Shown piece by piece: positions 2,966 to 32,000 of a stretch of DNA of 32,000 nt. A program made the position numbers and the translations under genes. Source of the stretch: Geotalea daltonii FRC-32 (lineage in GTDB: Bacteria > Desulfobacterota > Desulfuromonadia > Geobacterales > Geobacteraceae). How positions within the stretch are numbered: position 1 is the stretch's first letter; every line of letters begins with the position of its first letter. The notes beneath the pieces are model-generated. The model was not told where the DNA came from. It did no database searches and was given only the letters and a program-made list of their open reading frames with translations. The DNA lies in contig NC_011979.1 of NCBI RefSeq assembly GCF_000022265.1, positions 840,001 to 872,000 on the forward strand, in the 5' to 3' direction.

Positions 2966-2979
2966 CAGGAAAGGCGCAA

Positions 2980-10421: not shown

Positions 10422-11329
10422 CAGTGGATACGCTTGCACGTCTCTGTACCGCCGTACGGGGCAAGGTGCTGGTGAATGAGCCCCTGGCGGGGCACACCTC
10501 ATTGAAGGTGGGGGGGCCGGCCGACTACTTTGCCATTCCGGCCGATCTGGCCGATCTGGAAGAACTTATCAAGGTTGTGCGGAGCTTGTCTCTGCCATAT
10601 TTCATCATCGGCGGTGGTTTCAACGTGCTGGTCGGTGACGGGGGCTTCAGGGGGGTCGCTATATCCCTCAAGGAACTGAACGGCATGGAGAGTCCCTCCC
10701 GTGGCCGGATCCGTGCAGAGGCAGGGGCTACCAATCAGCAGCTGGTGAATTACGCCACGGGCAAGGAGCTTACCGGCTTGGAATTTCTCAGCTGCATTCC
10801 GGGAACCATAGGCGGTGCGCTCAGCGTAAATGCCGGAGCCCACGGCCAGTCGACGATGGAGCAGGTTGAGACCCTGATAACTATGAGGGATGGCCGGATC
10901 TTTGAAAATGAAGGCAGGAAAAGGAACTTCGGCTACAGGTACCTTGAGCTGGAGCCGGGAGAGATTGTTGTGGCAGCTGTTTTCAGCCTGAGCGAAGGGA
11001 AGGCGGAGGCTATTGGGGAAAAGCTGGAAAGCTATCGCCGCCATCGCCTGGAAAGTCAGAAGATAGGTTATCCCAATGCCGGTTCATTTTTCAAAAACCC
11101 GGAAGGCCAACAGGCATGGCGTTTGATAGACGAGGCAGGTTTCAGAGGCTTCCAGGTGGGAGGAGCCCAGGTTTCCGAGATCCACACCAACTTTCTCGTC
11201 AACAGGGGTGGGGCGAGTGCTGCAGATTTCATCACCCTGGCTGGAATGATCAAACAAAAGGTCCTTGAACGGAGCGGGATTTTGCTCCAGGAGGAAGTGC
11301 GCATCCTGGATGAATATGAGCAGAAATAA
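10418..11329 (+). CDS. murB: UDP-N-acetylenolpyruvoylglucosamine reductase (MurB)
   Basis: 303 aa. FAD-binding PCMH-type N-terminus ([13 protein letters not shown]) and the catalytic-region block [12 protein letters not shown] start overlaps the murC stop (TTGA). GTG at 10424 is an alternative start. Confidence 0.92.
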
Positions 11330-11342
11330 GTCGTGAGGATAG

Positions 11343-12275
11343 GTGGCCATGACCAGTTCAGATAACAAAAAAATCGGCGTATTGATGGGAGGATTTTCGG
11401 CAGAGCGCGAGGTTTCCCTGAAGAGCGGCGCAGCCGTGTTGAAAGCGCTTGTCGGGCTCGGCTACAATGCAGTAGGCATTGACGTTGACCGCAACGTGGC
11501 AACTAAGATCGTAGCGGAAGGCATTAATGCCGCCTTTATCGCGCTCCATGGCCGATATGGTGAAGATGGCGCTATACAGGGCCTGCTGGAATTGATGGCC
11601 ATCCCCTATACCGGCTCCGGTGTTTTGGCCAGTGCTCTGGCCATGAACAAGATATTTGCCAAACAGGCCTTCCAGGCAGCAGGGCTGACCGTTGCCCCTT
11701 ACCGGGTGGTTTGCCGGGGCGAAGTATTCGATGCCAAAACCTTTACCTTCCCGTTCCCGGTGGTGGTAAAGCCATCCCAGGAGGGTTCTTCGGTCGGCGT
11801 CAGCATTGTCAGGCAGGAATCGGAACTTGAGGCTGCAATGCAGGATGCCTTCAAATACGACCGGGAAATACTCATCGAGCAGTTCATCAAGGGAGCCGAA
11901 GTCCAGGTGGGAATATTGGAAGACAAGGCCCTGGGTGCCATTGAGATTGTGCCGAAAAAGGAATTTTACGACTTTGAAGCAAAATACTCACCGGGTATGG
12001 CCGAGCATATCCTGCCGGCAAGACTTCCTGCCGATTTATATGAAAAGGTACTGCGCGCGGGGGAAGAAGGTCACCGTGCCCTGGGCTGCAGCGGATACAG
12101 CAGGGTGGACTTCCTGGTAACAACCGAGGGGCTTTGTTACATCCTTGAGGTCAACACATTGCCCGGCATGACCGACCTCAGCCTGCTGCCGGAGATAGCC
12201 CGCGGTTCGGGAATAGAGTTCGGGGAGCTGGTGGAGAGGCTGATTTCTGCCGCCACATTAAAAATAGCACAATAA
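11343..12275 (+). CDS. ddl: D-alanine--D-alanine ligase (Ddl)
   Basis: 310-aa ATP-grasp enzyme with blocks [33 protein letters not shown] and EVNTLPGMT. The start is GTG 11343 or ATG 11349. Confidence 0.94.
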
Positions 12276-12294
12276 ATATAAACCATCGACTGAC

Positions 12295-13128
12295 GTGACC
12301 ATGCGCGATCTTCATAAAAAAAAACCACGGCCGGTTACGCAAAACCGGCTGAAAAAGCCGCCCAAGACGTGCAAGCCGATTAACTATCGAGGCATCCTTA
12401 AAAAAACAGCCAAGGTAGTGGGGGGAGCAGCACTGATTTCCGCGGTTGGATGTGCAGGATATGGCATCTACCGGATCATTGCCGGCACGACCTTTTTCAA
12501 GCTGGAGCGGATCGAGGTTAGCGAGCTGAAGACCCTCAAGCGCCAGGAAATCATCGACCTGGCTGGGGTAAGGGAGGGGGACGGGATGTTCGGCCTCAGG
12601 CTGCGCAGCATCGGCGAACAGATCGGAAAAAACCCCTGGGTTTCACGGGTAGAGGTCAGGCGCTACCTGCCCAATACCCTCTCCATGCAGATAGCGGAGC
12701 GCCAGCCGGTGGCGGTGATCAACATGGGGTACCTCTATTATCTGGATGCCAATGGTGATGTTTTCAAGCCGCTTACCGAGGGGGACCAGCTGGATTACCC
12801 GGTCATTACCGGTATCAGTGAAGAAGACATTGCCAGGGATCCGGCCGGATCGAAAGGGGCGCTCAAGGAGGTACTGGAGTTGATTGCACATCTCAAGTCC
12901 CGCGCCGACTTCAAACTGGATGAAGTTTCAGAGATTCATTACGATAAGGGATACGGCGTTACATTGTTCACCGCAGCGGCAGGTGTGCCTGTAAAACTGG
13001 GGAGTGGCGATTACAGCCGGAAACTGGATCGTCTTGCCAGGATATATAAGGAACTGCAAACCCAGATATCTGTTCTGGAATATATTGATCTCGATTACAG
13101 CGATAAGATCATAGTGAAAAAGGTTTAA
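12295..13128 (+). CDS. ftsQ: Cell division protein FtsQ (POTRA domain)
   Basis: 277 aa. It has a basic cytoplasmic tail, a single TM segment (VVGGAALISAVGCAGYGIY) and a POTRA-like segment (FKLERIEVSELKTLKRQEIIDLAGV). It lies between ddl and ftsA. The start is GTG 12295 or ATG 12301. Confidence 0.88.
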   Translation: MTMRDLHKKKPRPVTQNRLKKPPKTCKPINYRGILKKTAKVVGGAALISAVGCAGYGIYRIIAGTTFFKLERIEVSELKTLKRQEIIDLAGVREGDGMFGLRLRSIGEQIGKNPWVSRVEVRRYLPNTLSMQIAERQPVAVINMGYLYYLDANGDVFKPLTEGDQLDYPVITGISEEDIARDPAGSKGALKEVLELIAHLKSRADFKLDEVSEIHYDKGYGVTLFTAAAGVPVKLGSGDYSRKLDRLARIYKELQTQISVLEYIDLDYSDKIIVKKV

Positions 13129-13139
13129 AGGGGGGGTGT

Positions 13140-14375
13140 ATGTCGGCAAGAAGGGATAATCTCATTGTAGGGCTGGATATCGGCACCACCAAGATCTGTG
13201 CCATTGTCGGCAACCTTACCGAAGAGGGGATAGACATCGTCGGCATTGGTACCAGTCCCTCGCGGGGTCTGCGAAAGGGTGTCGTGATCAATATCGAGAG
13301 CACGGTGGCTTCCATCAGGAAAGCGGTGGAGGAAGCCGAGCTCATGGCCGGCTGTGAGATAAAATCTGTCTATGCCGGTATTGCCGGCGGGCACATCAAG
13401 GGGTTCAACTCCCAGGGTGTGATTGCCATCAAGAATCGCGAGGTTTGCGCCGAAGATGTAAAAAGGGTCATCGACGCGGCTAAGGCCATTGCCATCCCCA
13501 TGGACCGGGAAGTGATCCACATTCTCCCTCAGGAGTTCATTATCGACGACCAGGACGGCATTCGCGAGCCGCTGGGCATGAGTGGCGTCAGGCTGGAGGC
13601 CAAGGTCCATATCGTCACCGGGGCCGTCGCCAGCGCCCAGAACATCATCAAATCCTGCAATCGTGCCGGCTTGGACGTGGCGGATATTGTGCTGGAGCAG
13701 CTTGCCTCTTCAGAGGCGGTTCTTTCGGCCGATGAAAAAGAATTGGGAGTAGCTCTCATCGATGTGGGGGGGGGAACAACAGACATTGCCATTTTTGTCG
13801 ACGGCGCCATCAAGCATACCTCCGTACTTTCCCTTGGCGGCAACCACCTGACCAACGATATCGCCGTGGGCCTGAGAACCCCAATGGCAGAGGCGGAAAA
13901 GATCAAGCAGAAGTACGGTTGTTGTCTGGCCTCCCTGGTGGGCAAGGATGAAACCATCGAGGTGCCGAGCGTCGGCGGCAGGAAACCAAGGGTGCTTTCC
14001 CGTCAGCTTTTGGCTGAAATTCTGGAGCCTCGTGTGGAGGAAATCTTCACCCTGGTCAACCGGGAGATCGTCAAGTCAGGTTATGAGGACATGATTGCCT
14101 CCGGGGTGGTGATAACCGGTGGAAGCACCATACTGGAAGGGATGCCGGAGCTTGCCGAGCAGGTTTTCAACCTGCCGGTGAGAAGGGGCCTGCCTCAGCG
14201 GATCGGCGGTCTGGTGGATGTGGTAAATTCGCCGGCCTACGCCACAGGCGTTGGACTCGTGGTATACGGCAGCAAAAATGTGGGGGTCCACGAATTTCCG
14301 TCGGCCCAGAGCGAAGAAAGCATCTTCCGCAAAGTGAGCGGCAGGATGAAGGAATGGTTCAGCGAGTTTTTCTGA
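13140..14375 (+). CDS. ftsA: Cell division protein FtsA (actin-like ATPase)
   Basis: 411 aa with phosphate-binding motifs [14 protein letters not shown] and [14 protein letters not shown]-rich SD (GGGGGGG) precedes the ATG. Confidence 0.96.
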
Positions 14376-14430
14376 TGAATATAGTTCATGTGCAGGTCTA
14401 AACATACAACACAGCAAAAAGGGGGGGGAG

Positions 14431-15582
14431 ATGTTCGAATTTGACGAGAGTATTGACCAGACGGCGAAAATCAAGGTGATCGGGGTAGGGGGAAGCGGCG
14501 GCAACGCCGTAAATACCATGATCAACAGCAACGTGGGGGGCGTTGACTTCATTGTTGCCAACACCGATGCCCAAGCATTGCGTAACTCGAAGGCACCGCT
14601 GAAAATCCAGATCGGTGGCCAGCTGACCAAAGGGCTCGGGGCCGGAGCCAACCCCACCGTAGGGAGGGAAGCTGCCCTGGAGGATCGGGAAAAGCTGCTG
14701 GAATCCCTGAAGGGCGCAGACATGATCTTCATTGCCGCCGGCATGGGGGGCGGTACCGGTACCGGTGCAGCGCCTGTCATTGCCGAAGTGGCAAGGGAGG
14801 TGGGGGCGCTTACAGTCGGAGTCGTCACCAAGCCTTTCAGTCGCGAAGGGCGCCAGCGTCTAGCCAAAGGGGAAGACGGGATCAAAGAGCTGAAGAAGCA
14901 TGTGGACTCCCTGATCGTCATTCCCAACGACCGTTTGCTGGGACTGGCCGGTAAATCAATGTCCATCCTCGACGCCTTCAAGCCTTCCGACGACGTGCTG
15001 CGCCAGGCTGTGCAGGGCATTTCAGACCTGATCACTACCTCTGGTCTGATCAACGTCGACTTTGCCGATGTAAAGGCGATCATGAGCGAGCGCGGTATGG
15101 CCATGATGGGGATCGGTATGGGCTCCGGTGAAAATCGCGCCGTTGACGCTGCTACCCGGGCCATTTCCAGCCCGCTGCTGGAAGATATCGACATTTCCGG
15201 GGCCAAAGGGGTGCTGGTGAACATTTCCGGCTCCAGTGCCATGACCATGGACGAGTTCGATGCAGCAAGCCGTATCATCCACGAGAAGGTGCATGAGGAT
15301 GCCAATATTATCGTCGGTCTGGTAATCGATGAGAACCTGGGCGATGTGATCAAGGTAACGGCTATCGCCACCGGGTTCGGTGACCGCTTCGACGTGGAAA
15401 AGACCCGCCAGGAGCTGAAAAGCGTGGCACCCGTGGTACGAAACGAGATAAACCGGGAAATCCCGACCTTTATCAGGGAAAAACAGCAGCAGCGTGAGAC
15501 CTTTTCCCGGCAGCGGAGCTTCATGATGGATGATGAGGAGCAGTATGACATCCCCACCTTCCTCCGCAAATCGGTCGACTAA
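14431..15582 (+). CDS. ftsZ: Cell division GTPase FtsZ
   Basis: 383 aa with the tubulin signature [13 protein letters not shown] and the conserved C-terminal peptide [10 protein letters not shown]8 SD tract lies upstream. Confidence 0.98.
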
Positions 15583-15810
15583 GCAGCGCCACTTTTCCGC
15601 CTGCTGCGTAAGTCTTCAGGAGCACTTGTGCGGCGTGGCGCTGCCACGCCTCCGCGCGCTCCTTCGACAGCCTTGCAGAGACGAAAAATTGTCGCTGCTG
15701 AAATTGCGGTAGATGGTTGCGACTGTAACCCAACTTCTGCATATTCAGTGTGATGATTTCATGTCAACCGCTGGTGGTGGCCCCCCCGCCACCGGCAGGG
15801 AGTTTAGTTC

Positions 15811-15891: not shown

Positions 15892-17559
15892 ATGTCCTGG
15901 AAGATCATCGAGAAACACCGTAAAATCCTTGCCTGCGAGGATGGGATACCAATAAAGAAGTCGGTGGCCGGCCTCAGGTTCTGCCTGGTTTATCCCAACC
16001 GCTACCATGCCGCCATGAGCAATCTGGGCTTTCAGGCGGTCCATTCCATTCTCAATGGTTACCCTGATGTCCTCTGCGAACGGGCCTTTCTTCCGGACCG
16101 GGAGGATCTGGACGAGTATGCGAAATCGGGTACCCGCCTCCTTTCCCTGGAATCCCAGCGGCCGGTAGCCGAGTTCGATATCATTGCATTCTCTGTCTCC
16201 TTCGAAAGCGATTACCTGAACCTGCCCGTCATTTTCAAGCTTGCAGGCCTGCCTTCCTGTGCCGCGGAGCGTGATTCCTCCATGCCTCTAGTCATGGCCG
16301 GCGGTGCGGCTCTTTTTCTCAATCCTGAGCCAGTTGCGGATTTTATGGATTTCATTTGCGTCGGTGAGGCTGAAACCCTTCTGCCTGCCCTGCTACGGGT
16401 CCTGACCGTGGACGAGCAGATCGTCCGACGGGAACTTTTGGCGCGTTGTGCCGTGGTGCCGGGAGTCTATGTCCCCTCCTTTTACCAGATCACCTATGCC
16501 GGTGCAGGCATCGCTTCGCGCATTAATCTTGATCCCGCCCCGCCGGCGGTCCAACGGCTTTGGGACGGGGACCGTAATGGGGCACCTACTGTCTCGACTA
16601 TCCTCACCGAAAATACGGAATTTTCCGATATGTACCTGGTTGAGGTCGCCCGCGGCTGCCCGCGTGGCTGCCGGTTCTGCGCCGCCGGCTTCATCTATCT
16701 TCCCTATCGCCAGAGGAACATGGAATCGGTTATGGAAGAGGTGAGGAAAGGGCTGCAGAAAAAGAAAAAAATAGGGCTGGTGGGCGCGGCCGTTTCCGAC
16801 TTCAAGGGGGTCGGCGAGCTGTCACGATTCATCGTCCAACAGGGCGGGAAAGTATCTGTTGCTTCCCTGCGTATCGACTGTCTTGACGAACAGCTGGTGG
16901 ATTCCCTAAAGGAGAGCGGCCACAAGACGGTGGCGCTGGCCCCGGAAGGGGGATCACAGCGCCTGCGGGACCTGATCAAAAAGAATATCGACGAAGAGCA
17001 GATATTGACTGCCTGCGACCTGCTCATCGGCAAGGACCTGCTCAACCTGAAACTGTACTTCATCATCGGCCTTCCCACGGAAACCATGGTCGATCTGGAT
17101 GAGATGATCGCCCTTGTGACCAAGGTGCGTGACAGGGTCATTGACGCGGCACGTAAAAACAAAAGGCTGGGTGAGGTGCTGCTTTCGGTTAATCCATTCA
17201 TCCCGAAACCCTTTACCCCCTTCCAGTGGTGCGGCATGGAAGACCTGAAGAGCCTTGAGAAAAAGGCCAGATACCTGCAAAAGGGCCTCTCTGGTCTGTC
17301 AAACGTGAGGATGCAGATGGAGGGATTGAAGGATGCCTATCTGCAGGCACTGCTGTCCCGGGGAGACCGCCGTCTGGCGCCACTCATCCTGCTGGCCGGC
17401 GAAAAAGGCTGGAAAAAGGCCGCCCGTGAATTGAATGTTGACACCGATTCCTGGGTCAGGCGAGACATTTCCCTCGACGAGGTCTTACCCTGGGATTTCA
17501 TTGACAGTGGCGACAGGGAAAAGTTGGTGAGTGAATACCGGAAGGCGTTTTCTGCTTGA
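15892..17559 (+). CDS. Radical SAM protein with N-terminal B12-binding-like domain (TIGR03960-like uncharacterised family)
   Basis: 555 aa with the CxxxCxxC cluster motif in EVARGCPRGCRFCAAGFIYLPYRQR. The N-terminal block RFCLVYPNRYHAAMSNLGFQAV resembles that family. An in-frame TAA sits 4 codons upstream, so ATG 15892 is the first possible start. No obvious SD. Confidence 0.8.
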   Translation: MSWKIIEKHRKILACEDGIPIKKSVAGLRFCLVYPNRYHAAMSNLGFQAVHSILNGYPDVLCERAFLPDREDLDEYAKSGTRLLSLESQRPVAEFDIIAFSVSFESDYLNLPVIFKLAGLPSCAAERDSSMPLVMAGGAALFLNPEPVADFMDFICVGEAETLLPALLRVLTVDEQIVRRELLARCAVVPGVYVPSFYQITYAGAGIASRINLDPAPPAVQRLWDGDRNGAPTVSTILTENTEFSDMYLVEVARGCPRGCRFCAAGFIYLPYRQRNMESVMEEVRKGLQKKKKIGLVGAAVSDFKGVGELSRFIVQQGGKVSVASLRIDCLDEQLVDSLKESGHKTVALAPEGGSQRLRDLIKKNIDEEQILTACDLLIGKDLLNLKLYFIIGLPTETMVDLDEMIALVTKVRDRVIDAARKNKRLGEVLLSVNPFIPKPFTPFQWCGMEDLKSLEKKARYLQKGLSGLSNVRMQMEGLKDAYLQALLSRGDRRLAPLILLAGEKGWKKAARELNVDTDSWVRRDISLDEVLPWDFIDSGDREKLVSEYRKAFSA

Positions 17560-19101: not shown

Positions 19102-21702
19102 TCATGGCTCTCGCTTCTTGATTACCAGACTGTCCCCGTCCATGGCCACATCGACGACGACGGTGTCGCCTTCCTGGAATTTGCCCTGTAACAGCATGAG
19201 CGCCAACGGGTCCTGCACCTTTTTCTGCAGGGTTCGTTTCAGCGGTCGTGCGCCATATGCAGGATCGTAACCTTCCTTGGCAAGGTACTCGCTTGCCCTG
19301 CCCGTTATTTCCAGTCCCAGATTGCGCTCGGCCAGGCGCTTTTGCAGCCCCTTGATCTGGAGAGACACGATGTGTTTGATCTGCTCCAGCGGCAGGGAGT
19401 GGTAAATGATTATCTCGTCGATGCGGTTTAGAAACTCCGGTTTGAAGTTTTCCCGCAGGGTTCCCATGACCATTGTGCGCATTTTTGCGTAGTCGCCGCT
19501 GGCGTACTGCTGTATGAACTGGGAACCCAGGTTGCTGGTCATGATGATTACCGTATTGCGGAAATCGACGGTGCGACCCTGGCCGTCGGTGAGACGGCCG
19601 TCATCCAGCACCTGCAGCAGGATATTGAACACATCCGAGTGGGCCTTCTCGATCTCGTCGAACAGGACAATGCTGTAAGGACGGCGGCGGATGGCCTCGG
19701 TCAGCTGTCCCCCCTCTTCATAGCCCACATAACCGGGAGGTGCACCGATAAGTCTAGCTACCGTATGCCTTTCCTGATACTCACTCATGTCGATGCGAAC
19801 GATGGCCTGGTCATCGTCAAAGAGAAATTCTGCCAATGCCCGGGCGGTTTCGGTTTTGCCGACGCCAGTGGGTCCAAGGAAGATAAAGGAGCCTATGGGC
19901 CGGTTCGGGTCGGAAAGTCCGGACCTGGAACGCCGCACCGCATTGGCCACCAGTTCCAGGGCTTCATCCTGGCCAACGACCCTCCCTTTGAGGCGCTCTT
20001 CCATTCTGACCAGTTTTTCCGATTCGGTCTCCAGCATGCGGTTCACCGGGATGCCGGTCCACTTGGCGACAATCTCCGCCACCATGTCCCCGTCCACCTC
20101 TTCGGGAAGCATCTTCCCTTCTTTCTGTTTCTGCAGCAGTTCATTGCTCTTATCGGCAATATCCTTCTCGATGGCCGGTATCTCCCCATAGCGGAGCTTG
20201 GCGGTTAATGCCAGATCCCCTTCACGCTCACTCTTCTTCGCCTGTTCCTTTTTCTCTTCCAACTGCTTTTTCAGATCGCTGATGCTTGTCAGCAGGGATT
20301 TTTCCTGCTGCCATTGGCTCTTCAGCGTAGCCGAACTGCTGCGCAGTTCTTCAAGTTCGTCCGATATTTTCCTCAGTCGCTCTTTAGCATGGGGGTCCTG
20401 TTCTCGGAGCAGAGCCTGTTTTTCGATCTCCAGCTGGATGACCTTACGTTCCACCTCGTCGATTTCGGTGGGCATGGAGTCGATCTCGATGCGCAGGCGC
20501 GAGGCCGCCTCATCGATGAGGTCGATGGCCTTGTCCGGCAGAAAACGGTCGGTGATATATCTGTCGGAGAGGGTGGCCGCGGCGATGATGGCGCTGTCCT
20601 TGATGCGGACGCTGTGATAGTTCTCGTATCGCTCCTTGAGGCCGCGCAGAATGGCAATGGTGTCTTCGACACTGGGCTCTCCTGCGTAGACCTGCTGAAA
20701 CCGGCGTTCCAACGCCGCATCCTTTTCAATGTGCTTCCGGTATTCATTGAGGGTTGTGGCGCCGATGCAGTGCAGCTCGCCGCGGGCCAAGGCCGGCTTG
20801 AGCATGTTTGAGGCATCCATGGCCCCTTCGGCTGCCCCTGCCCCCACCAGGGTATGCAACTCGTCGATGAAGAGGATGATCTTGCCTTCGGCTTTCTCCA
20901 CTTCCTTGATCACTGCCTTGAGCCGGTCTTCAAATTCCCCACGGTACTTGGCACCGGCAATCAGCGCTCCCATGTCCAATGCCACCAGCTTCTTGTCCCG
21001 CAGGGTTTCCGGCACATCGCCGGAGATGATGCGCTGGGCCAGCCCTTCGACGATGGCGGTTTTTCCCACCCCGGGCTCGCCAATCAGGACCGGGTTATTC
21101 TTGGTTCGCCGCGACAGGACCTGGATAACCCTGCGTATCTCGTCGTCTCTGCCGATTACCGGGTCAAGTTTGCCTCGCCGAGCCAGATCGGTAAGGTCTC
21201 TGGCATATTTGGTCAGTGCCTGATACTTGTCTTCGGCGGCTTGATCGGTAATCTTTTCATCGCCCCTGATATCCTTCAAAGCGGCGAGAATTCCCTCGCG
21301 GGTAACACCGCTTTCTCTGAGAATCCCGGCAATAATACTTCCCTTTTCTCCTACCAGTGCCAAGAGCAAGTGCTCGGTGGAGACAAAGGCATCCTTCATG
21401 GTATCGGCTTCCTTCTGGGCTGCATCCAACACATGATTCAGTGTCGGGGAGAGGAATACCTGCATGGTGGCCCCGCTCGCCCGGGGCAGTTTGCGCAGGG
21501 CCTCGGCCAGCCGTTCGTTAACCAAGTTAGGGGTGACCCCCATCTTTTGCAGGATCGAGCCCGTCAGCCCCCCTTCCTGCCCCAGCATGGCCGAAAGCAG
21601 GTGCTCCGGCTCTATTGCGCTGTTGCCGCGTTGTGCTGCTGCTTCCTGGGCCTGAGACAAGGCTTCCTGGGTCTTTATCGTCATTTTTTCCGGCCTGATC
21701 AT
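19102..21702 (-). CDS. clpB: ATP-dependent chaperone/disaggregase ClpB
   Basis: 866 aa with N-terminal Clp_N repeats, two AAA+ modules (Walker A GEPGVGKT and GPTGVGKT) and a long coiled-coil middle domain between them. GAAGGAG SD. Confidence 0.97.
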
Positions 21703-22267: not shown

Positions 22268-22465
22268 CTAGACGGAATGGGAAATGGCACTTACCGGGCA
22301 GACGGCACAGGCTTGGCAGGATCTGCATCGGTTTTGATGGTATCGCACGGCGTGTTTTCTGTATCCTTCGACCTCCAGTGTTATGAGGTGGTGGGGACAG
22401 GCTGAAACACAGCGACCACAGCCGGTGCATCTTGTTTTTTCGATTGGTGGAGGGGAATATTTCAC
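22268..22465 (-). CDS. Small 2x[4Fe-4S]-type ferredoxin
   Basis: 65 aa with two cluster motifs, CTGCGRCVSACP and CRSCQACAVCP. The GTG start overlaps the stop of the upstream 53-aa ORF (GTGA). Confidence 0.75.
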   Translation of the reverse strand: MKYSPPPIEKTRCTGCGRCVSACPHHLITLEVEGYRKHAVRYHQNRCRSCQACAVCPVSAISHSV

Positions 22466-25040: not shown

Positions 25041-25209
25041 TTCTTTATCGAGAGTGGTGGAGGGAAAGGCCCTGCGAAACCACAGCAACCTGTGCATTTT
25101 TTATTGCAACGGGTGCTAATTCCTGCCGATAAGTAACCGGCGAAGATGAGGTGGGTGCTTGGCGAAAATCTCGCACGAAGCCCCTGCTAACCCAAAGGGG
25201 CTTTTTTTG
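25041..25209 (+). promoter_or_regulatory. SAM-I (S-box) riboswitch with intrinsic terminator expression platform
   Basis: Aptamer (~25041-25153): cTTTATCGAGAGTGGTGGAGGGAAAGGCCCTGCGAAACCACAGCAACC...GGTGCTAATTCCTGCCG...GAAGATGAGG. It matches the conserved S-box blocks (TTATC.AGAG.GG.GGAGGGA..GGCCC..GAA.CC..GCAACC / GGTGCTAA..CC / AGATGAG). P1 pairs CTTTATC with GATGAGG. Terminator: AGCCCCT (25179-85) / AGGGGCT (25196-202) plus T7, 13 nt before the metY ATG. Confidence 0.9.
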
Positions 25210-25221: not shown

Positions 25222-26475
25222 ATGACAGACAAGGCCAGAACATACGGATTTGAAACATTGCTGATCCATGGAGGTCTGGAGCCGGGACCGGCCGGAGCAA
25301 CCACCGTGCCTATCGTTCAGTCCTCTTCCTTTGCCCATGCCACGGCTGAGGACCTGGAGGATATCTTTCGCGGCCGAAAGATCGGCCAGGTATATACCCG
25401 GGTCGGCAATCCGACGACGGAAAGCCTGGAGAAGCGACTGGCGGTCCTGGAAGGGGGGCAATCGGCAGTCGCCACTGCTTCGGGCATGGCTGCCATTACC
25501 ACAGCGGTCATGGCCATCGTCCGGGCAGGTGATGAAATCCTTTCCTCCTCATCACTCTTTGGCGGCACTTTTTCCCTGTTCCGCGATACCCTGTCTGCCT
25601 ACGGCATCACCACCCGCTTTGTGGATCCCACTGATTTAGAGGCAGTAAAAGCGGGTATAAACGAAAAAACCCGCCTCATTTTTCTGGAAACGATCGGCAA
25701 TCCAAAAATGGATGTGCCAGATATCCCAGCAGTTGCCCAACTTGCCAGGGAAGCAGGTATCCCGCTCATGGTGGATGCAACGGTGACTACTCCCTATCTG
25801 GCCACGGGAAAGGATCTGGGAGCGGATATCGTTGTTCATTCGACGAGCAAGTTCATCAACGGCACCGGCAGTGCCATCGGTGGCGCCATTATCGATGTCG
25901 GCCGGTTCAACTGGCAGAGCGCTAAATTTCCACACTTTGAGCTGTTCTTCAAAAAATATCGCGGCTTTGCCTTTACCGCCAGGGTAAGAAAGTTGATCCA
26001 TAAGGATTTTGGCGCCTGTGCTGCTCCCATGAACTCATTCCTCTTGTCGGAAGGAATCGAGACCCTGGCCTTGCGCATGGAGCGTCACTGCAGCAACGCC
26101 CTGAAGCTGGCCCAATTCCTCCAGTTACAGCCAAAGGTTGCCTGGGTGAATTATCCGGGCCTTGCCGACAACCCTTACCACCAAGCGGCGAAAAAGTTAT
26201 ATGGGGACAGATTCGGTGGAGTTCTGACCTTCGGTCTGGCCGACAAGGTGGCTGCTTTCAGTTTTATCAACGGGGTAAGGCTGGCGCGGAATCTGGCCAA
26301 TATAGGCGACGCAAAGACACTGGTCATCCATCCCGCGAGCACCATCTGTGCCGACTTCGGCCCGGAGGAAAAGGGGCTGATGGGGGTGGGTGAAGAGATG
26401 GTGCGGGTGTCGACGGGCATTGAAAACATAAATGACATTATCGAGGATTTTCGGTTATCCTTGGACCAATTGTAA
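25222..26475 (+). CDS. metY: O-acetylhomoserine sulfhydrylase (PLP-dependent Cys/Met metabolism family)
   Basis: 417 aa. N-terminal FETLLIHGG, the PLP-lysine block HSTSKFINGTGSAIGG, and typical OAH sulfhydrylase length and blocks. AAGGGGAG SD. Confidence 0.9.
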   Translation: MTDKARTYGFETLLIHGGLEPGPAGATTVPIVQSSSFAHATAEDLEDIFRGRKIGQVYTRVGNPTTESLEKRLAVLEGGQSAVATASGMAAITTAVMAIVRAGDEILSSSSLFGGTFSLFRDTLSAYGITTRFVDPTDLEAVKAGINEKTRLIFLETIGNPKMDVPDIPAVAQLAREAGIPLMVDATVTTPYLATGKDLGADIVVHSTSKFINGTGSAIGGAIIDVGRFNWQSAKFPHFELFFKKYRGFAFTARVRKLIHKDFGACAAPMNSFLLSEGIETLALRMERHCSNALKLAQFLQLQPKVAWVNYPGLADNPYHQAAKKLYGDRFGGVLTFGLADKVAAFSFINGVRLARNLANIGDAKTLVIHPASTICADFGPEEKGLMGVGEEMVRVSTGIENINDIIEDFRLSLDQL

Positions 26476-26490: not shown

Positions 26491-26706
26491 ATGAATCTGA
26501 CGGTAAACGGCAAAGCGGCAACAATAGCGGGCAAGGATAATCTGGACGTCAATGCTCTGTTGGTGGAACTGAAGGTGGAGCAGCCCGACTACGTGACGGT
26601 GGAGCTGAATGGCGACATCCTGGAGCGTGACAATTTCGGCCAGACCATGGTCAAGGACGGCGACACGGTGGAATTCCTCTATTTCATGGGTGGAGGGAAC
26701 CTCTAA
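26491..26706 (+). CDS. ThiS/MoaD-family sulfur-carrier protein (HcyS/CysO-like) with C-terminal extension ...MGGGNL
   Basis: 71 aa, beta-grasp-like in size and pattern (MNLTVNGK...VELNGDIL...DGDTVEFLYFMGGGNL). The Gly-Gly is not terminal. Strong SD (AAGGAGA). Its stop overlaps the start of the E1 gene (TAATG). Confidence 0.8.
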   Translation: MNLTVNGKAATIAGKDNLDVNALLVELKVEQPDYVTVELNGDILERDNFGQTMVKDGDTVEFLYFMGGGNL

Positions 26707-27515
26707 TGCTGACAGAAGACCAGATAGCCCGCTATTCCCGCCACATCATCCTCAAGGAAGTTGGCGGCAAGGGGCAGAAAAAATTGTTTGACGGCAAGGT
26801 GATGATCATCGGCGCCGGTGGCCTAGGCTCCCCCATTGCCCTCTATCTGGCGGCGGCCGGGGTCGGCACCATCGGCATTGCCGATGCCGATGTGGTCGAT
26901 CTTTCCAACCTGCAGCGCCAGGTGATACACCAGACCAAGGATGTGGGGATCGCCAAGGTGCTATCCGCCAAGGAAAAGATGCAGGCCATCAATCCCGAAC
27001 TCACGGTCAACACTTACGAGGAATGGATCAGCGCCGCCAATATCACCGACATCATCAAGGACTATGATTTCGTCATCGACGGCACCGACAACTTCGCTGC
27101 CAAGTTTCTTATCAATGATGCCTGTGTGCTGGCCGGTAAGCCCTATTCCCACGGCGGCATTCTCCAGTTCGACGGCCAGACCATCACTATCGAGCCGGGT
27201 AAGTCGGCCTGCTACCGTTGCATCTTTCCTACGCCGCCGCCCAAAGACGCCATTCCCACCTGTTCCACGGCGGGGGTTATCGGGGTGCTGCCGGGGGTGA
27301 TCGGCACCATTCAGGCTACCGAGGCAATTAAGTTCCTGCTGGGCAAGGGAGAGCTTTTGACCGGGCGACTACTTACCTACAGTGCTCTGCGGATGAGATT
27401 CCGCGAGGTGCCCATCAAGAAGAATGGCAAATGTCCCATCTGCGGTGACAACCCCACCATTACCCAGGTGGTGGACGAACTTGACGCACTGAATGTGTGC
27501 GACCTGGAAAAATGA
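26706..27515 (+). CDS. ThiF/MoeB/HesA-family adenylyltransferase (E1-like, HcyF-like), no rhodanese domain
   Basis: 269 aa with RYSRHIILKEVG, the ATP loop GAGGLGSP and two CxxC pairs (CYRC, CPIC) for structural Zn. The protein ends right after the second CxxC, so no C-terminal rhodanese domain is present. Confidence 0.88.
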   Translation: MLTEDQIARYSRHIILKEVGGKGQKKLFDGKVMIIGAGGLGSPIALYLAAAGVGTIGIADADVVDLSNLQRQVIHQTKDVGIAKVLSAKEKMQAINPELTVNTYEEWISAANITDIIKDYDFVIDGTDNFAAKFLINDACVLAGKPYSHGGILQFDGQTITIEPGKSACYRCIFPTPPPKDAIPTCSTAGVIGVLPGVIGTIQATEAIKFLLGKGELLTGRLLTYSALRMRFREVPIKKNGKCPICGDNPTITQVVDELDALNVCDLEK

Positions 27516-27590
27516 GCAGCTTCCGCACCTGCACAATATTGCCGAATTGATATGTGAAATCTGCCGATAATGTTTTTTGAAAGGTCATTC

Positions 27591-27989
27591 ATGCTTAAAA
27601 TCCCCAAAGTAATCCATGACGATATCATCGCCCATGCCAGGGCGGGGTTTCCCCTTGAAGTATGCGGCATCCTCGGTGGCACTGCAGGGACGGTTTCCGT
27701 TATCTACCGGATGACCAACACCGATCAGAGCAATGAACACTTCATGATGAACCCCAAGGAGCAGTTCGCCGTCATCAAGGAGCTGCGCGCCAATGGGTTG
27801 GAGATGCTGGCCATTTACCACTCCCATCCCGAAACGCCCGCTCGCCCGTCGGAGGAAGATATTCGCTTGGCACTGACCCCGAATGTTTCCTATGTCATTG
27901 CCTCATTGGCTGAACAGGAAAAGCCGGCGGTCAATTCCTTCAGTATCAGCGGCGGAACTGTCACGCCAGAACCTATTGAGGTAATCTGA
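27591..27989 (+). CDS. JAMM/MPN+ metalloprotease (Mec+/HcyD-like sulfur-carrier C-terminal hydrolase)
   Basis: Catalytic Glu in FPLEVCGIL and the JAMM motif HSHPETPARPSEED (HxHx7Sx2D). The track ORF starts at 27570. I prefer ATG 27591 (GAAAGG 7 nt upstream; MLKIPKV.., 132 aa). Confidence 0.85.
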   Translation: MLKIPKVIHDDIIAHARAGFPLEVCGILGGTAGTVSVIYRMTNTDQSNEHFMMNPKEQFAVIKELRANGLEMLAIYHSHPETPARPSEEDIRLALTPNVSYVIASLAEQEKPAVNSFSISGGTVTPEPIEVI

Positions 27990-28062: not shown

Positions 28063-28098
28063 GCTTTTACCTGAACTTGAGCAATGGAGTGGATAAAT

Positions 28099-29046
28099 AT
28101 GGCAAACGACAGCGGCAAGACCAGCATCGATCTGGGCAACCTCAAGGCAGGGGGCTTTATCAAGGAGAGGGGCAAGGACCTCTTCACCGTCAGGCTGAGG
28201 GTTCCCGGCGGGAGAATGACCGTCCCCCGACTGAAGAAAATAGCCCAAGTGGCCGAAAAATTCGGTGGGGAATTTGTCCATCTTTCCGTGCGGCAATCCA
28301 TCGAACTGATCAATATCAATTTCAAAGATTTTGATGCCGTTGTTGCCGAGCTGGGTGAAGGCGAGCAGAAGGTCGCCTCCTGCGGTGCCCGGGTAAGGGT
28401 GCCTACCGCTTGCGGCGGCTGCGAATACAACCCCAACGGCCTGGTGGACACCCAGCGTTCGGCCCTGGAGGTTGATGAAAAACTTTTCGGTACTCCCACC
28501 GGCCACCACAAATTCAAGGTCGGCTTTGCCGGCTGCCCCTTTGACTGCCCTAAATCGGCAACCAACGATGTGGGCTTCCAGGGTGCTATCTGGCCTGAGC
28601 TGCACGCTGACGAGTGCATCAGCTGCGGCCTCTGCGCCAAGTCCTGCACGGAGGGGGCCATTGCCATGGGAGCGGACGGCAAACCTGAATTCAACGCTGC
28701 TGCCTGCATCTACTGTGGCGATTGCGTCAAGGTCTGTCCAACCGAAGCTTGGAAGGTAGCAAAAAAAGGCTATACGGTGCGGATTGGCGGCAAATGGGGT
28801 CGTCATCCGTTAGTGGGTACACTTTTCGCCACCTTCCTCCCAGAAGACCGGGTGGTGGATTTTATCGGCGAGGTCCTGGCCTGGTACAAGGAGAAGGCCG
28901 ATGGCACCGGCCGCATCAGGATTGGCGACATCATTATCAGGGAAGGGGCTGATTCGCTTTTAACTCGCCTGAGGGCCAGGTTTCCTGACTTTGTTGCCGA
29001 AAAAACCATCGCCCCGCAGGTGATAGAAACTCAGGTGGGGAAATAA
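28099..29046 (+). CDS. Small siroheme-type sulfite/nitrite reductase family protein with inserted 2x[4Fe-4S] ferredoxin domain (AsrC/DsrA-like)
   Basis: N-terminal NIR/SIR ferredoxin-like half domain (FTVRLRVPGGRMTVPRLKKIAQVAEKFGGEFVHLSVRQSIEL). Cys groups CGARVRVPTACGGC and CPFDC are consistent with a siroheme-coupled cluster. Ferredoxin motifs CISCGLCAKSC and CIYCGDCVKVCP are also present. I prefer ATG 28099 (GGAG 8 nt upstream) over track start 28084. Confidence 0.8.
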   Translation: MANDSGKTSIDLGNLKAGGFIKERGKDLFTVRLRVPGGRMTVPRLKKIAQVAEKFGGEFVHLSVRQSIELININFKDFDAVVAELGEGEQKVASCGARVRVPTACGGCEYNPNGLVDTQRSALEVDEKLFGTPTGHHKFKVGFAGCPFDCPKSATNDVGFQGAIWPELHADECISCGLCAKSCTEGAIAMGADGKPEFNAAACIYCGDCVKVCPTEAWKVAKKGYTVRIGGKWGRHPLVGTLFATFLPEDRVVDFIGEVLAWYKEKADGTGRIRIGDIIIREGADSLLTRLRARFPDFVAEKTIAPQVIETQVGK

Positions 29047-29077: not shown

Positions 29078-29302
29078 ATGCAAACAGTTGATTTACGTGG
29101 TGTCTCCTGCCCGACCAATTTTGTCAAGGCCAAGCTGGCGCTGGAAATGCTGGACGAGGGGGAAACGGTGGAGTTCCTTCTGGATGACGGCGAACCGGTC
29201 AAAAATGTCCCCCGCAGCCTGAAGGGGGAAGGGCATAAACTTCTGGGGCTGAAGCAGGTGGAGAGCCATTACGTCCTGACCCTGGAAAAGGTCGGGGAAT
29301 AA
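29078..29302 (+). CDS. TusA/SirA-family sulfur-transfer protein (variant CPTN motif)
   Basis: 74 aa. VDLRGVSCPTNFVKAKLALEML..GETVEFLLDDGEPVKNVPRSL matches the TusA pattern (D.RG..CP.....K.AL..L..GE.L....DD). AAGGGAG SD. Confidence 0.8.
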   Translation: MQTVDLRGVSCPTNFVKAKLALEMLDEGETVEFLLDDGEPVKNVPRSLKGEGHKLLGLKQVESHYVLTLEKVGE

Positions 29303-29343: not shown

Positions 29344-30150
29344 ATGACAGTGGACCAGCAAAAACTGCGAGATATGATCAGCCAACCGAAGACCACCTTC
29401 GTGGCTGGGGCGCTGCGACGCGAGGGGAACGTATTCTTCATCGACGGGGAGCTGCCTGCAAAGTCGAGCCTGGAAGCACTTTTCGATAGTCACTGCCAGT
29501 CTCCGGCTGAGCTGTTCTGCATTGCCTTTCGCAACGTGAGTGACTTCCATTGCGGAGAGGATCTGGCCAGACTGGTTAAAAAAAATTTCAGCGCTCACCT
29601 GCTCGGACGATTCCGGTTTCCCCCTTCCTTGCCCCTGATGGAAAGGGCTTATGCCGCAGGTATCGATATCATCGACATACCACTGGGTGTATTTGATCCG
29701 GACATAGCCCGTGAGCGGGCGCTTAATCGTGAGGCGCTCCTGATATCTTTATCAAATGCGCTTACAGTCTTTCCCCGCTGGTCGGTGGTTTCCACACTGG
29801 ATGCCGGTGAAGAGCCGGCATCATCCACCCGGGCAGGCATAGGCCATTTGCTTGCCGCCGATATTTTACCACTGGTGGAGCTGGTGGCGCCGCTTGCAGA
29901 CAGATCTGCCTCAGAGATCGGCAATCTGTTCGAACAACTGGCAGGAAGCTGGCGCAGCCGGAAGGCAACGATCAAGCCCCTCCAGCCATTGATCGATGTT
30001 ACGACTCCTCTTGCTCCGCTCAAATCAAAAGGCGTGCTAAAGGGGCTCTTTGACAAGGTATATGAGCAGAAGTTGCTGGCGGCCTCTGATTTACGCCGTA
30101 GTCTCAGGGTGCGACAGGTTGAACAGTCATTCGAATCGGCGGGGCTGTAA
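29344..30150 (+). CDS. Hypothetical protein, no family recognised (possible degenerate radical-SAM-like/TIM-barrel fold lacking CxxxCxxC)
   Basis: 268-aa ORF with an in-frame TAA directly upstream and a weak SD. Codon usage resembles its neighbours. Its stop overlaps the DASS permease start (TAATG), which argues that it is expressed as part of the operon. Cys residues occur only in HCQSPAELFCIAFRNVSDFHC. Confidence 0.65.
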   Translation: MTVDQQKLRDMISQPKTTFVAGALRREGNVFFIDGELPAKSSLEALFDSHCQSPAELFCIAFRNVSDFHCGEDLARLVKKNFSAHLLGRFRFPPSLPLMERAYAAGIDIIDIPLGVFDPDIARERALNREALLISLSNALTVFPRWSVVSTLDAGEEPASSTRAGIGHLLAADILPLVELVAPLADRSASEIGNLFEQLAGSWRSRKATIKPLQPLIDVTTPLAPLKSKGVLKGLFDKVYEQKLLAASDLRRSLRVRQVEQSFESAGL

Positions 30151-31592
30151 TGGAGCAGATTGAAAAGCCTCTAAAGATCGACCGCCGCCCCATGTGGCTG
30201 ATTTTGGCCGACCGCACCTTGCACTACCAGGTCTTTGCCGGACTGATCATCCTCTGTACGGTGCTGTTTCAGCTGAAGCCTCCTCAGGGGCTTTCAGTGG
30301 AAGGCTACCACGCCATGATCCTTTTCGGCGCCACCATCTTCCTTTGGGTTTCCAGTTTGCTGCCCCTGGCGGTGACCTCCCTGCTGGCCATGGCCATGAT
30401 ACCGCTGCTCGGCATCATGGAAGCGAAAAAGACCTATGCCTTGTTCGGCAACGAGGCAGTCTTCTTCATTCTGGGAGCCTTCATCATGGCCGCCGCCATG
30501 AGCGGCACAGGTCTTTCGTCCCGCTTGGCACGGGCAATGCTGGCTCGCTTCGGCAGCACCCCAAAAAAGCTGGGCCTGACCGTCTACCTTCTCAGCGCCT
30601 TTCTCTCCTTCTGTATGAGCGAACATGCGGTGGCCGCCATGATGTTCCCCATCGTGGTGGAAATAAGCGGCAGTCTGGGGCTGCAGAGCGAAAAGAACAG
30701 CTACGGCAAATTGCTTTTCATGAGCATCGGCTGGGGCTGTGTCATCGGTGGCATCGCCACCTTTCTCGGCGGAGCCCGTGCGCCGTTGGCGGTAGGAATG
30801 CTTCGGGAGAGTACTGGCCTGGATTTCTCCTTCTTCGAATGGACCATGGCAGCCATCATGATTGTCCTTCCGCTGCTGGTGATCGGCTACCTTCTGCTGC
30901 TCTGGCTATTTCCCCAGGACATTGACAGTGTTGACGAAGGGCTCAGGTTTCTCAACCGTAAGCGATTGGAAGTGGGCCGAATGAGTTATGACGAGATAAT
31001 TGTCGCTGTGGTGACGGTCATCACCATTCTTGCCTGGGTATTTCTCGGTAAACAGCTGGGGCTTGCAAGCATTGCCACCCTGGCGGTGGTCGCTCTTTTT
31101 GCCTGTCGGGTGGTGTCATGGCAGAGCATCGAGGAGTATGTGAACTGGGGCGTGATCCTCATGTACGGCGGGGCCATTGCCATTGCTTCAGCCCTGGAAA
31201 AGACCGGCGCTGCACAATGGCTGGCCGGCCAAGCCCTGGCAGGTCTTAATGACTCTCCCTTTCTGGTCATCACCGTCATGTCGCTGATCTCACTGCTGCT
31301 TACCGAATGTATAAGCAATGCGGCGGTGATCGCCATCCTCCTGCCCATCGGCATCAGCCTGTCCAAATCCATGGGAATGGATCCGCGGGTGATGACCCTG
31401 GCAGTGGCCCTTCCCGCTGGCCTTGCTTATTGTCTGCCCATGGGGACCCCGGCTAACGCCATCGTTTTTTCTTCAGGCTTCCTCAAAAGCAGGGAGATGA
31501 TCCTGCCGGGAATGCTGATCATGGCCATATCGTGGCTGCTGTTTCTCGCTTCGGCCTGGCTGGTCTGGCCGCTGATCGGCTTCAGGATATGA
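30150..31592 (+). CDS. DASS/SLC13-family anion:cation symporter (putative sulfate or other sulfur oxyanion uptake)
   Basis: 480 aa with ~12-14 hydrophobic segments. The two re-entrant hairpin motif positions read FCMSEHAVAAMMFPI (variant of SNT) and TECISNAAVIAILLPIG. Substrate is inferred from context only. Confidence 0.8.
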   Translation: MEQIEKPLKIDRRPMWLILADRTLHYQVFAGLIILCTVLFQLKPPQGLSVEGYHAMILFGATIFLWVSSLLPLAVTSLLAMAMIPLLGIMEAKKTYALFGNEAVFFILGAFIMAAAMSGTGLSSRLARAMLARFGSTPKKLGLTVYLLSAFLSFCMSEHAVAAMMFPIVVEISGSLGLQSEKNSYGKLLFMSIGWGCVIGGIATFLGGARAPLAVGMLRESTGLDFSFFEWTMAAIMIVLPLLVIGYLLLLWLFPQDIDSVDEGLRFLNRKRLEVGRMSYDEIIVAVVTVITILAWVFLGKQLGLASIATLAVVALFACRVVSWQSIEEYVNWGVILMYGGAIAIASALEKTGAAQWLAGQALAGLNDSPFLVITVMSLISLLLTECISNAAVIAILLPIGISLSKSMGMDPRVMTLAVALPAGLAYCLPMGTPANAIVFSSGFLKSREMILPGMLIMAISWLLFLASAWLVWPLIGFRI

Positions 31593-31597
31593 CGATT

Positions 31598-31667
31598 GTA
31601 GGGGCGCTGTTTGCCGCGCCCGGTTTTTCACCAGCAATAATGGGCGCGGCAAGCAGCGCCCTTACGA
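31598..31667. repeat. REP-like nested palindrome (two inverted copies of a GGGCGC-N8-GCGCCC hairpin unit)
   Basis: Arm 1 is GGGCGCTGTTTGCCGCGCCC (31602-31621). Arm 2 is GGGCGCGGCAAGCAGCGCCC (31642-31661). They are reverse complements with one G-U position, separated by 20 nt and flanked by GTAG.../...CTTAC. Each arm is itself a 6-bp hairpin. Confidence 0.6.
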
Positions 31668-31676: not shown

Positions 31677-32000
31677 ATGACACAGATCCCTGTACTATCA
31701 GACGCCACTCCGGAGGAAATACTCAAGGCCGGCTATGGAGCCACCGGAGGCAACATCGCCCTGGCCTGCTCCTTTTCCGTGGAAGATGTGGTCATCATCG
31801 ACATGGCCCAGGCCCTATCCTTGCCCCTGCGCGTGTTCGCCCTGGATACGGGACGTCTCCACGAGGAGACCTACGAGGTTGCCGATGCCCTCACTGAGCG
31901 CTACCGGATCAAGATCGACTGGTATTATCCCCGCCATGAAGCGGTTGAGCAGCTTTTGCGGGAAAAAGGTACCTTCTCCTTCCGCGAATCCCTTGAGAAC
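31677..32000 (+). CDS. cysH: Phosphoadenylyl-sulfate/adenylyl-sulfate reductase (thioredoxin-dependent CysH family), 3'-truncated by the window edge
   Basis: Hand translation gives MTQIPVLSDATPEEILKAGYGATGGNIALACSFSVEDVVIIDMAQALSLPLRVFALDTGRLHEETYEV...EKGTFSFRESLEN. The SFS.EDVV.IDM and LDTGRLH.ETY blocks are CysH hallmarks. GAGGA SD 6 nt upstream. It is absent from the track because no stop lies within the window. Confidence 0.85.
   Translation, partial: MTQIPVLSDATPEEILKAGYGATGGNIALACSFSVEDVVIIDMAQALSLPLRVFALDTGRLHEETYEVADALTERYRIKIDWYYPRHEAVEQLLREKGTFSFRESLEN

Follow-up and report, generated by a model that had tools for sequence, protein, structure and literature searches.

Within a stretch of 32,000 nucleotides from Geotalea daltonii FRC-32 (contig NC_011979.1, positions 840,001 to 872,000), which we refer to throughout as the window, a string of sulfur-assimilation genes includes one at 29344-30150 (+) that encodes a 268-residue protein, here named T. 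Profile alignment and a predicted structure identify T as the barrel half, by descent, of a ~410-residue 'variant' radical S-adenosylmethionine (SAM) family that is catalogued as NF045502. T is a cluster-less, radical-SAM-like protein, and directly downstream of it, in every locus that we compared, stands a gene for a permease of the DASS family. Our preferred reading, to which we give slightly more credence than doubt, is that T binds the cytoplasmic face of this permease and acts non-catalytically, regulating uptake or coupling uptake to assimilation.

Descent of T and loss of the iron-sulfur site

Direct database comparisons with T yield little. The NCBIfam match is to NF045502 ('variant_rSAM'), at 20.1 bits (E 2.5e-4) and over model positions 231-322 only, which lies below the curated cutoff of 125 bits for this 357-position model. 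Pfam Radical_SAM (PF04055) does not match T even at E<=1, and a profile search of the PDB with the T family returned only ThiH at E 0.19, with no sequence-level match. The direct Pfam and PDB-sequence matches that did appear (BON_like, E 0.11; HDA1, E 0.66) were set aside as unusable. The homology of T to radical-SAM proteins is visible only by way of an intermediate family of full-length proteins.

This intermediate family came from a profile search of 1.8 billion representatives, in which proteins of ~360-430 residues matched T from residue 40/70 to residue 268 and through to their own C-termini. The full-length proteins score 128-219 bits against NF045502 (219 and 211, for example), also match Pfam Radical_SAM, and have weaker scores with the profiles for TIGR04043 (MSMEG_0568-family radical SAM), LipS2 and LipA. 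They carry a cluster motif of the form C-x8-C-x2-C, such as CDFFPKEESCRFC, in keeping with the CX8-9CX2C spacing of NF045502. When the two families were aligned with hhalign, the match had a probability of 99.9% (E 9e-33, 233 columns) and placed T residues 36-268 on residues 149-407 of the full-length family.

The structural evidence agrees with this alignment. An AlphaFold2 (AF2) model of T (predicted local distance difference test score, pLDDT, 85.6; predicted template-modelling score, pTM, 0.82) is that of a soluble alpha/beta protein with five beta/alpha repeats, followed by a long C-terminal helix of low confidence. The model and Foldseek together indicate the partial (beta/alpha)6 TIM barrel of the radical-SAM superfamily (PF04055). 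The best PDB matches are biotin synthase, AprD4, PylB, LipA, NifB and HydE, led by 8vcw (E 1.3e-4, root-mean-square deviation 3.4 Å over 186 columns) and then 8vdw, 3t7v, 5exi and 7o1t, and matches outside the radical-SAM enzymes are weak (template-modelling score, TM, <=0.4). The first-pass annotation of this DNA, which was made from the letters alone, had remarked on a likeness to radical-SAM/BioB-like barrels and had named the partial TIM barrel as the feature to check. The barrel is there, with radical-SAM enzymes as its top matches, and the likeness reflects descent. That annotation also described T as soluble-looking, and the model agrees: hydropathy over 19 residues peaks at a borderline 1.67 (residue 166), on a barrel strand and helix that are buried.

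A neighbour-joining tree places T as a monophyletic group nested among long, Cys-less members of the NF045502 family. The tree is rough, since the Cys-less forms sit on long branches, and we use it only for the monophyly of T and for its grouping with the Cys-less long forms.

T is set apart from its full-length relatives by what it has lost. Approximately 130 N-terminal residues are missing, comprising the first ~60 of the N-terminal domain and a block of ~72 that includes the cluster-binding loop, and a separate deletion of six residues removes the invariant fourth cysteine ('ICPG', C243 in the full-length protein P0161). The three-Cys motif is present in 0 of 120 T-family proteins, compared with 116 of 118 full-length homologues. 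With both the CX8-9CX2C loop and the fourth cysteine lost, T cannot bind a radical-SAM cluster as the NF045502 family does.

The only cysteines of T are C51, C59 and C70, which form a C-x7-C-x10-C pattern and no CxxxCxxC, just as the first-pass annotation had recorded. Its proposal of a non-canonical Fe-S enzyme does not survive comparison with the T family, because the ancestral cluster loop is deleted and these cysteines are unconserved: Geomonas has Y or F in place of C51, and the other two positions, C59 and C70, are variable. The idea of a new Fe-S site at C-x7-C-x10-C was rejected on this ground. An alignment of 39 T members, which are 47-67% identical to T of the window, contains 34 invariant columns and no conserved cysteine. 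T therefore has neither the three-Cys motif (CX3CX2C or a variant) that defines radical-SAM proteins nor ligands for an auxiliary Fe-S cluster of the BioB/LipA type. On its sequence T is a cluster-less derivative that fails the defining radical-SAM test, and it should not be filed as a radical-SAM enzyme.

Much of the barrel is retained. T proteins of the window family carry KKNF, ERAYAAGxD, FPRWxVxSTLxAGEEP and GIDxLL..PL, which in forms common to T and the full-length proteins read KKNF, (E/D)RxYAxGxD, FPxGxVxSxLxxGxEP and GIxxL...P. A C-terminal tail, LRRxLRV(K/R)xVxxS(F/Y)xSxGL, is found in 116 of 120 T-family and 115 of 118 full-length proteins, and also in other Cys-less relatives. The peptide stretches cited in the first-pass annotation are likewise present. 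The SAM-binding motifs of the superfamily are GGE after beta2, a ribose motif at beta4 and GxIxGxxE at beta5. In the joint alignment, the beta5 'G-x-E' is retained (AGEEP in T, aligned with VGLEP), the beta2 'IGY/F' has become FRN in T of the window and FG(D/G) in most T-family members, and the 'Y-H/N-L-D/E' that follows YAxGxD has become 'D-I-P-L'. The pattern 'YAxGxD..Y-H-L-D' may resemble the BioB 'YNHNLD' SAM/ribose motif.

The first-pass annotation regarded T as an orphan. However, a search of 5.8 billion proteins recovers 174 homologues at E<=1e-3, nearly all of them 257-268 residues long and all unnamed or 'hypothetical'. Conservation beyond this strain, which that annotation had asked for, thus extends to seven genera: among species-representative genomes the T family is limited to Geobacterales/Desulfuromonadales, with members in Geotalea, Geobacter, Geomonas, Citrifermentans, Geomesophilobacter, Desulfuromonas and Geoalkalibacter. 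In 11 species pairs the ratio of nonsynonymous to synonymous substitution rates (dN/dS) is 0.11-0.25 for T and 0.04-0.13 for the adjoining permease. These ratios, together with the 34 invariant columns, indicate that the T gene is real, translated and under purifying selection.

Given a protein that has lost its catalytic loop, a conserved cysteine and an N-terminal domain, and that evolves faster than its neighbours, we considered whether T might be a decaying relic, a truncated and functionless gene heading for loss. We regard this as highly improbable. A dN/dS of 0.11-0.25 in every tested pair contradicts it, as do the steady length and the columns that stay invariant across genera. Moreover, among 41 loci (40 Geobacterales loci compared by tblastn, plus the window) the T frame is intact in all but two draft assemblies. 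One of these, from Geotalea toluenoxydans, a species to which the window is ~97% identical in nucleotides, could be taken as a gene caught in decay. The draft of strain JCM 15764 (our locus L003, about 10000-12350) differs from the window by five single-base insertions or deletions across T and the permease gene, one of them in an A8 run at window 29570-29577, and both frames are broken. Four of the five fall in the permease gene, so that the changes fit sequencing error, and they are probably homopolymer errors and not signs of pseudogenes.

Pairing of T with a DASS permease across genomes

In all 41 loci the gene directly 3' of T, on the same strand and at a distance of -1 to 90 nucleotides, encodes a DASS permease. 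The rest of the neighbourhood varies. Sulfur-carrier genes lie 5' of T in only about one third of loci, a second locus type consists of ThiF-T-DASS-CysH-CysD-CysN alone, and Geomonas and Citrifermentans have a bare T-DASS(-Rrf2). When T is checked for co-occurrence, then, the permease is a constant companion and the carrier genes are not.

In the window the two genes overlap by one base: the TAA of T occupies 30148-30150 and the permease ATG begins at 30150. The first-pass annotation had read this overlap as implying stoichiometric co-expression. The overlap itself is as described, but it is not a conserved feature, since the -1 TAATG arrangement occurs in 12 of ~38 T-DASS loci and the remaining gaps measure 2-90 nucleotides. 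Stoichiometric co-expression as a general property is not borne out by an overlap found in about one third of loci.

The link to the permease is not confined to T: among metagenomic loci of full-length radical-SAM relatives that extend far enough 3' to show it, 66 of 70 have DASS as the next gene. Typical strings read ThiF-PALP-ThiS-PALP-NIL-ThiF-rSAM-DASS-Usp-ATP sulfurylase or PALP-SiR-TusA-ThiS-NIL-PALP-JAB-ThiF-rSAM-DASS (rSAM denotes the radical-SAM gene), and the hosts of ThiF-rSAM-DASS are soil, groundwater and sediment bacteria (Binatia, Acidobacteria-like organisms and metagenome-assembled genomes labelled 'Deltaproteobacteria'). T fits the same slot, upstream of DASS in sulfur-carrier/sulfate-assimilation clusters, which is an empirical and uncurated feature of NF045502. 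Long forms with degenerate cysteines are still linked to DASS: P0166 in a Sat-X-DASS-JAB string and P0215, the neighbour-joining sister of the T family (68 of 100 bootstraps), in JAB-X-DASS.

Covalent fusions provide the strongest form of this association. Proteins of ~875 residues, with an N-terminal radical-SAM part whose CX9CX2C is intact and a DASS permease, occur throughout Zetaproteobacteria, forming at least 119 protein clusters at 90% identity and including isolates such as Mariprofundus ferrooxydans, M. ferrinatatus and Ghiorsea bivora. Public annotation names these fusions only as 'anion transporter' or 'DASS family symporter'. The M. ferrinatatus string, PALP-ThiS-NIL-PALP-ThiF-[SiR-TusA]-[rSAM-DASS]-CysH-CysD-CysN, follows the order of the window, with the radical-SAM domain in the position of T. 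There (CP018800.1; L130, 6626-11622) two fusions adjoin one another, SiR-TusA of 781 residues and rSAM-DASS of 873 residues, and the pair mirrors the four separate genes for SiR, TusA, T and DASS in the window.

A comparison with Geotalea sp. SG265 adds a further aspect. Between its locus (L011, 10001-12289) and window 29344-31592, T is 54% and the permease 67% identical, compared with 85-97% for the flanking proteins. These values point to exchange of the pair as a unit, and T-DASS seems to be replaced as a cassette between close relatives. The idea of a permease accessory or regulatory subunit, one of several roles floated in the first-pass annotation, accordingly has strong genomic backing: T and its full-length relatives co-occur and are co-oriented with the transporter, and the radical-SAM domain of the latter is fused to it in some lineages.

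The same loci allow a different view, in which T and the full-length radical-SAM proteins serve the ThiF/ThiS machinery, T for instance by assisting the E1 or the formation of the thiocarboxylate as an adaptor or chaperone, and adjacency to DASS reflects operon packing. ThiF is immediately 5' of the full-length gene in 60 of 73 loci and directly 5' of T in approximately eight Geobacterales loci, and fusions of JAB with a radical-SAM domain stand directly after ThiS without DASS. We consider this quite unlikely, because some 20 T-DASS loci of Geomonas, Citrifermentans and Desulfuromonas have no ThiF, ThiS or JAB within 10 kb, because JAB, SiR and TusA stand between ThiF and T in the window, and because the covalent fusion seen across a whole class involves the permease. 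The JAB(JAMM)-radical-SAM fusions themselves (P0162, 575 residues) follow directly after ThiF and ThiS in L042 (719-2446), L114 and L122, and a PHP-domain gene is next in L042.

The permeases concerned belong to one DASS subfamily with a recognizable signature. An N-terminal motif, (I/V)DxRP(L/I/M)W, is present in 69 of 72 radical-SAM-linked DASS proteins and reads KIDRRPMW in the window (30150-30200). It is common to the permeases paired with T and with full-length radical-SAM proteins (DASS of L043-L124), is cytoplasmic, and is a candidate for the site of contact. The fusions carry an 'RPxH' motif ~15-25 residues past the LRRxLR helix.

Sulfate is the likely substrate of the T-linked permease, judging from gene context and published analogues. 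Genes for CysH-CysD-CysN or ATP sulfurylase lie 3' of the permease in sibling loci, in G. sulfurreducens an ABC sulfate transporter adjoins the counterparts of the sulfite reductase, carrier and E1 genes (PMC3495685), and bacterial DASS sulfate transporters are documented (PMC5840216). The neighbourhood of ThiS, JAB, E1, SirA, SiR and a sulfate transporter was described by Iyer et al. (PMC1779556).

Possible functions of T

T descends from a variant radical-SAM family whose members are encoded between a ThiF-type E1 and a DASS permease in sulfate-assimilation clusters with ThiS/CysO-type sulfur carriers. In the Geobacterales lineage the [4Fe-4S]/SAM-binding loop disappeared, along with the fourth invariant cysteine and the greater part of the N-terminal domain, whereas the core of the (beta/alpha) barrel and the basic, conserved helix at the C-terminus were retained. 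In our preferred reading, T as a partner of the permease, the resulting protein would dock on the permease as a cytoplasmic, non-radical accessory subunit. The permease would import sulfate for a route through CysH, CysDN, sulfite reductase, ThiS-thiocarboxylate and MetY, and docked T would tune this uptake or couple it to the downstream pathway. An accessory-subunit role suggests itself because the DASS gene on the 3' side is the sole unchanging feature of T loci and is fused to the full-length relative in Zetaproteobacteria.

Several observations weigh against this proposal. First, an AF2 model of a natural fusion (P0457) has well-predicted domains (pLDDT 86) and a pTM of 0.60, and does not fix the orientation of one domain relative to the other. 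Second, T evolves two to three times faster than the permease, and in locus L008 the permease is 87% identical to that of the window and T only 57%, a relationship that is loose for an obligate complex. Third, a Cys-less branch of ~370 residues (P0158 and P0172, in L125 137-2664 and L126 7579-10122) carries the same tail (...DSYESAGL) and is encoded directly after a Mur-ligase-family gene with no DASS nearby, so that neither scaffold nor tail is specific to transporters. By its sequence relatives the scaffold may serve other partners, or may itself be an enzyme.

The C-terminal helix had been a candidate for the element that docks on the permease. This idea is weakened by the presence of the tail in the Mur-ligase-linked paralogues, and also by the fusions, in which only the first half of the tail (LRRxLR) is retained, in 61 of 119.

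The possibility that T is still an enzyme deserves separate attention. As a partial TIM barrel, it would catalyse a cluster-independent reaction on an intermediate of sulfur assimilation or on the imported anion, and H50, D108, E157 and H198, along with several invariant Arg and Lys residues, would form a putative active or anion-binding site. Such a role would explain the purifying selection on T and the conservation, in common with full-length enzymes, of motifs at the C-terminal ends of strands (ERAYAAGxD, STLxAGEEP, GIDxLL). The Cys-less relatives beside a Mur-ligase-type enzyme likewise suggest a self-standing function over a transporter-specific adaptor. We nevertheless judge an enzymatic T to be unlikely. 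The pathway has no obvious gap, because SiR, ThiS, ThiF, JAB, TusA, MetY and CysH are encoded in the window, and CysD and CysN lie beyond the permease in sibling loci. The same genes bear on the missing step of sulfate activation that the first-pass annotation had floated as a role for T: with CysH immediately 3' of the permease here, and CysH-CysD-CysN in that place in sibling loci, no such step is obviously lacking. Furthermore, the invariant genomic partner is the permease alone and no enzyme, no residue-level match to a characterized non-radical barrel enzyme was found, and the Foldseek matches outside radical SAM do not exceed the low TM values given above.

A broader speculation, to which we assign a similarly low probability, is that the whole rSAM-DASS module constitutes a sensor or an enzyme of a new type, attached to a transporter. 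As a sensor, a radical-SAM-fold domain on the cytoplasmic face, fused to the permease in Zetaproteobacteria and encoded separately in other lineages, would gate sulfate uptake by sulfur and redox status, for example through its Fe-S cluster or by binding SAM, in which the pathway ends, and T would be a cluster-free form that keeps ligand- or partner-dependent gating. As an enzyme, the full-length domain would carry out a radical reaction in physical coupling with the import of the anion.

Surroundings, known systems and implications

As the first-pass annotation had noted, T is embedded among sulfur genes. MetY-like, ThiS, ThiF, JAB, SiR and TusA genes lie 5' of it, and DASS and CysH 3'. Coordinates of these genes and of the elements of T are collected in Table 1.

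Table 1. Features of the T locus in the window (positions are those of the 32,000-nucleotide stretch)
Feature	Position	Strand	Basis
SAM riboswitch (S-box), 5' of the MetY...T-DASS string	25042..25152	+	Rfam RF00162, 79.1 bits, E 3e-17
MetY-like sulfhydrylase	25222-26475	+	Pfam
ThiS	26491-26706	+	Pfam
ThiF	26706-27515	+	Pfam
JAB protease	27570-27989	+	Pfam
Small sulfite reductase (SiR)	28084-29046	+	Pfam
TusA	29078-29302	+	Pfam
T gene, stop codon included	29344..30150	+	ATG...TAA open reading frame, 268 residues, present as first annotated
T residues 1-34, remnant of the N-terminal domain of full-length relatives; LRREGNVFF falls on their 'SPYxL...FFL' strand	29344..29445	+	Joint alignment; beta-hairpin 24-34 in model
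Deletion junction, ~72 residues gone, including the CX8CX2C [4Fe-4S]-binding loop	29443..29451	+	Joint alignment, columns ~96-172
T residues 36-205, partial (beta/alpha) barrel core	29449..29958	+	AF2, Foldseek, conserved columns
C51, C59 and C70, unconserved across the T family	29494..29553	+	Alignment of the T family
T residues 244-268, highly conserved C-terminal tail LLAASDLRRSLRVRQVEQSFESAGL	30073..30147	+	Alignments; low-confidence long helix in model
TAATG, T stop and DASS permease start with one base in common	30148..30152	+	'ctgTAATGgag'
DASS-family (Na_sulph_symp) permease, 480 residues	30150..31592	+	Pfam 2e-64; TIGR00785 'dass', 273 bits
Terminator-like GC hairpin (31602-31621) and T-run, GGGCGCTGTTTGCCGCGCCC GGTTTTTC	31602..31629	+	Consensus scan only
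CysH (phosphoadenylylsulfate/adenylylsulfate, PAPS/APS, reductase) start, runs past the window end	31677..32000	+	Pfam PAPS_reduct 2.5e-11

Two of these elements bear on regulation. A SAM riboswitch precedes the string in the window, and another lies 5' of ThiF-T-DASS in a second Geobacteraceae genome (L006, 8742-8850). Because a riboswitch stands 5' of both T-DASS strings, the sulfate uptake genes may be under SAM control. The hairpin that follows the permease stop codon and precedes CysH could be a terminator or an attenuator between two transcription units, and it likely marks the end of the one that includes the permease.

The remainder of the window is unremarkable: positions 1-15600 hold a dcw cell-wall and division cluster (Mur ligases, MraY, MurG, FtsA and FtsZ), 15892-17559 encodes a canonical radical-SAM protein that has a Radical_SAM_N2 domain and is unrelated to T, and 19102-21702 (-) encodes ClpB. 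A 65-residue open reading frame at 22268-22465 (-) has two CxxCxxCxxxCP motifs and resembles a 2x[4Fe-4S] ferredoxin; its counterpart in the sibling locus L002 (6264-6464) has Fer4 matches in Pfam. Within the wider family, a more distant relative of 949 residues (P0256) is a fusion of ATP-grasp and radical-SAM domains. Considered alongside the ThiF and Mur-ligase genes found 5' of family members, this fusion hints at a tendency of the wider family to partner ATP-dependent ligases or adenylating enzymes.

Compared with systems already known, T is most like NF045502 itself (~400-420 residues, related to TIGR04043). It shares the barrel motifs, the LRRxLRVxxVxDSxxSxxL tail and the genomic slot directly 5' of DASS in sulfur-carrier sulfate-assimilation clusters. 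T differs in its score of 20 bits against a cutoff of 125, in having neither CX8-9CX2C nor the fourth cysteine, and in its shorter N-terminus. BioB, LipA, PylB and HydE are the nearest structural matches to the T model, at 10-14% identity and TM-scores of ~0.45-0.53; T is without their radical-SAM and auxiliary-cluster cysteines.

In its proposed mode of action, in which an inorganic sulfur anion enters through a membrane protein that has a cytoplasmic partner, T-DASS resembles the thiosulfate uptake system YeeE/YeeD (TsuA/TsuB). YeeE and YeeD are fused in some species. The families are unrelated, since YeeE lies outside the DASS family and YeeD has a TusA fold and a catalytic cysteine, whereas T has no conserved cysteine. 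The YeeE importer needs its small cytoplasmic partner, which is encoded alongside it (PMC11073785), and that partnership has been shown by experiment, whereas we infer the partnership of T from synteny and fusion.

The Wolinella HcyS/HcyF/HcyD/MetY pathway serves as the biochemical model for clusters of the ThiS/CysO type, which make Cys or Met by way of a protein thiocarboxylate. MetY, ThiS, ThiF, JAB, SiR and TusA in the window, with a sulfate transporter and CysH, match class 4e of Iyer, Burroughs and Aravind (2006; PMC1779556). The published clusters (PMC1779556, PMC3495685) list ABC transporters, with no mention of a radical-SAM or T-like gene or of DASS, and in the lineages studied here the T/rSAM-DASS pair holds the transporter position. 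In literature on radical-SAM proteins with a sulfate transporter, DASS, ThiF or CX8CX2C, we found no description of a pairing of rSAM or T with DASS, and RadicalSAM.org merely lists CX8CX2C megaclusters. The fold and the superfamily are thus known, whereas the form that lacks the cluster and is tied to a permease, like the rSAM-DASS module, appears to be undescribed.

If our interpretation is correct, a widespread set of Geobacterales 'hypothetical proteins' would gain an evolutionary identity as a cluster-less radical-SAM derivative, and an apparently undescribed conserved module, composed of ThiF, a variant radical-SAM protein and a DASS permease, would be exposed. The repeated loss of the cysteine motif with the permease link kept would then imply, as a testable constraint, that part of the job of this module needs no radical chemistry. 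Two testable questions would follow: what role a radical-SAM fold plays on a secondary sulfate transporter, and how sulfate entry may be coupled to protein-thiocarboxylate-dependent synthesis of Cys and Met in anaerobes.

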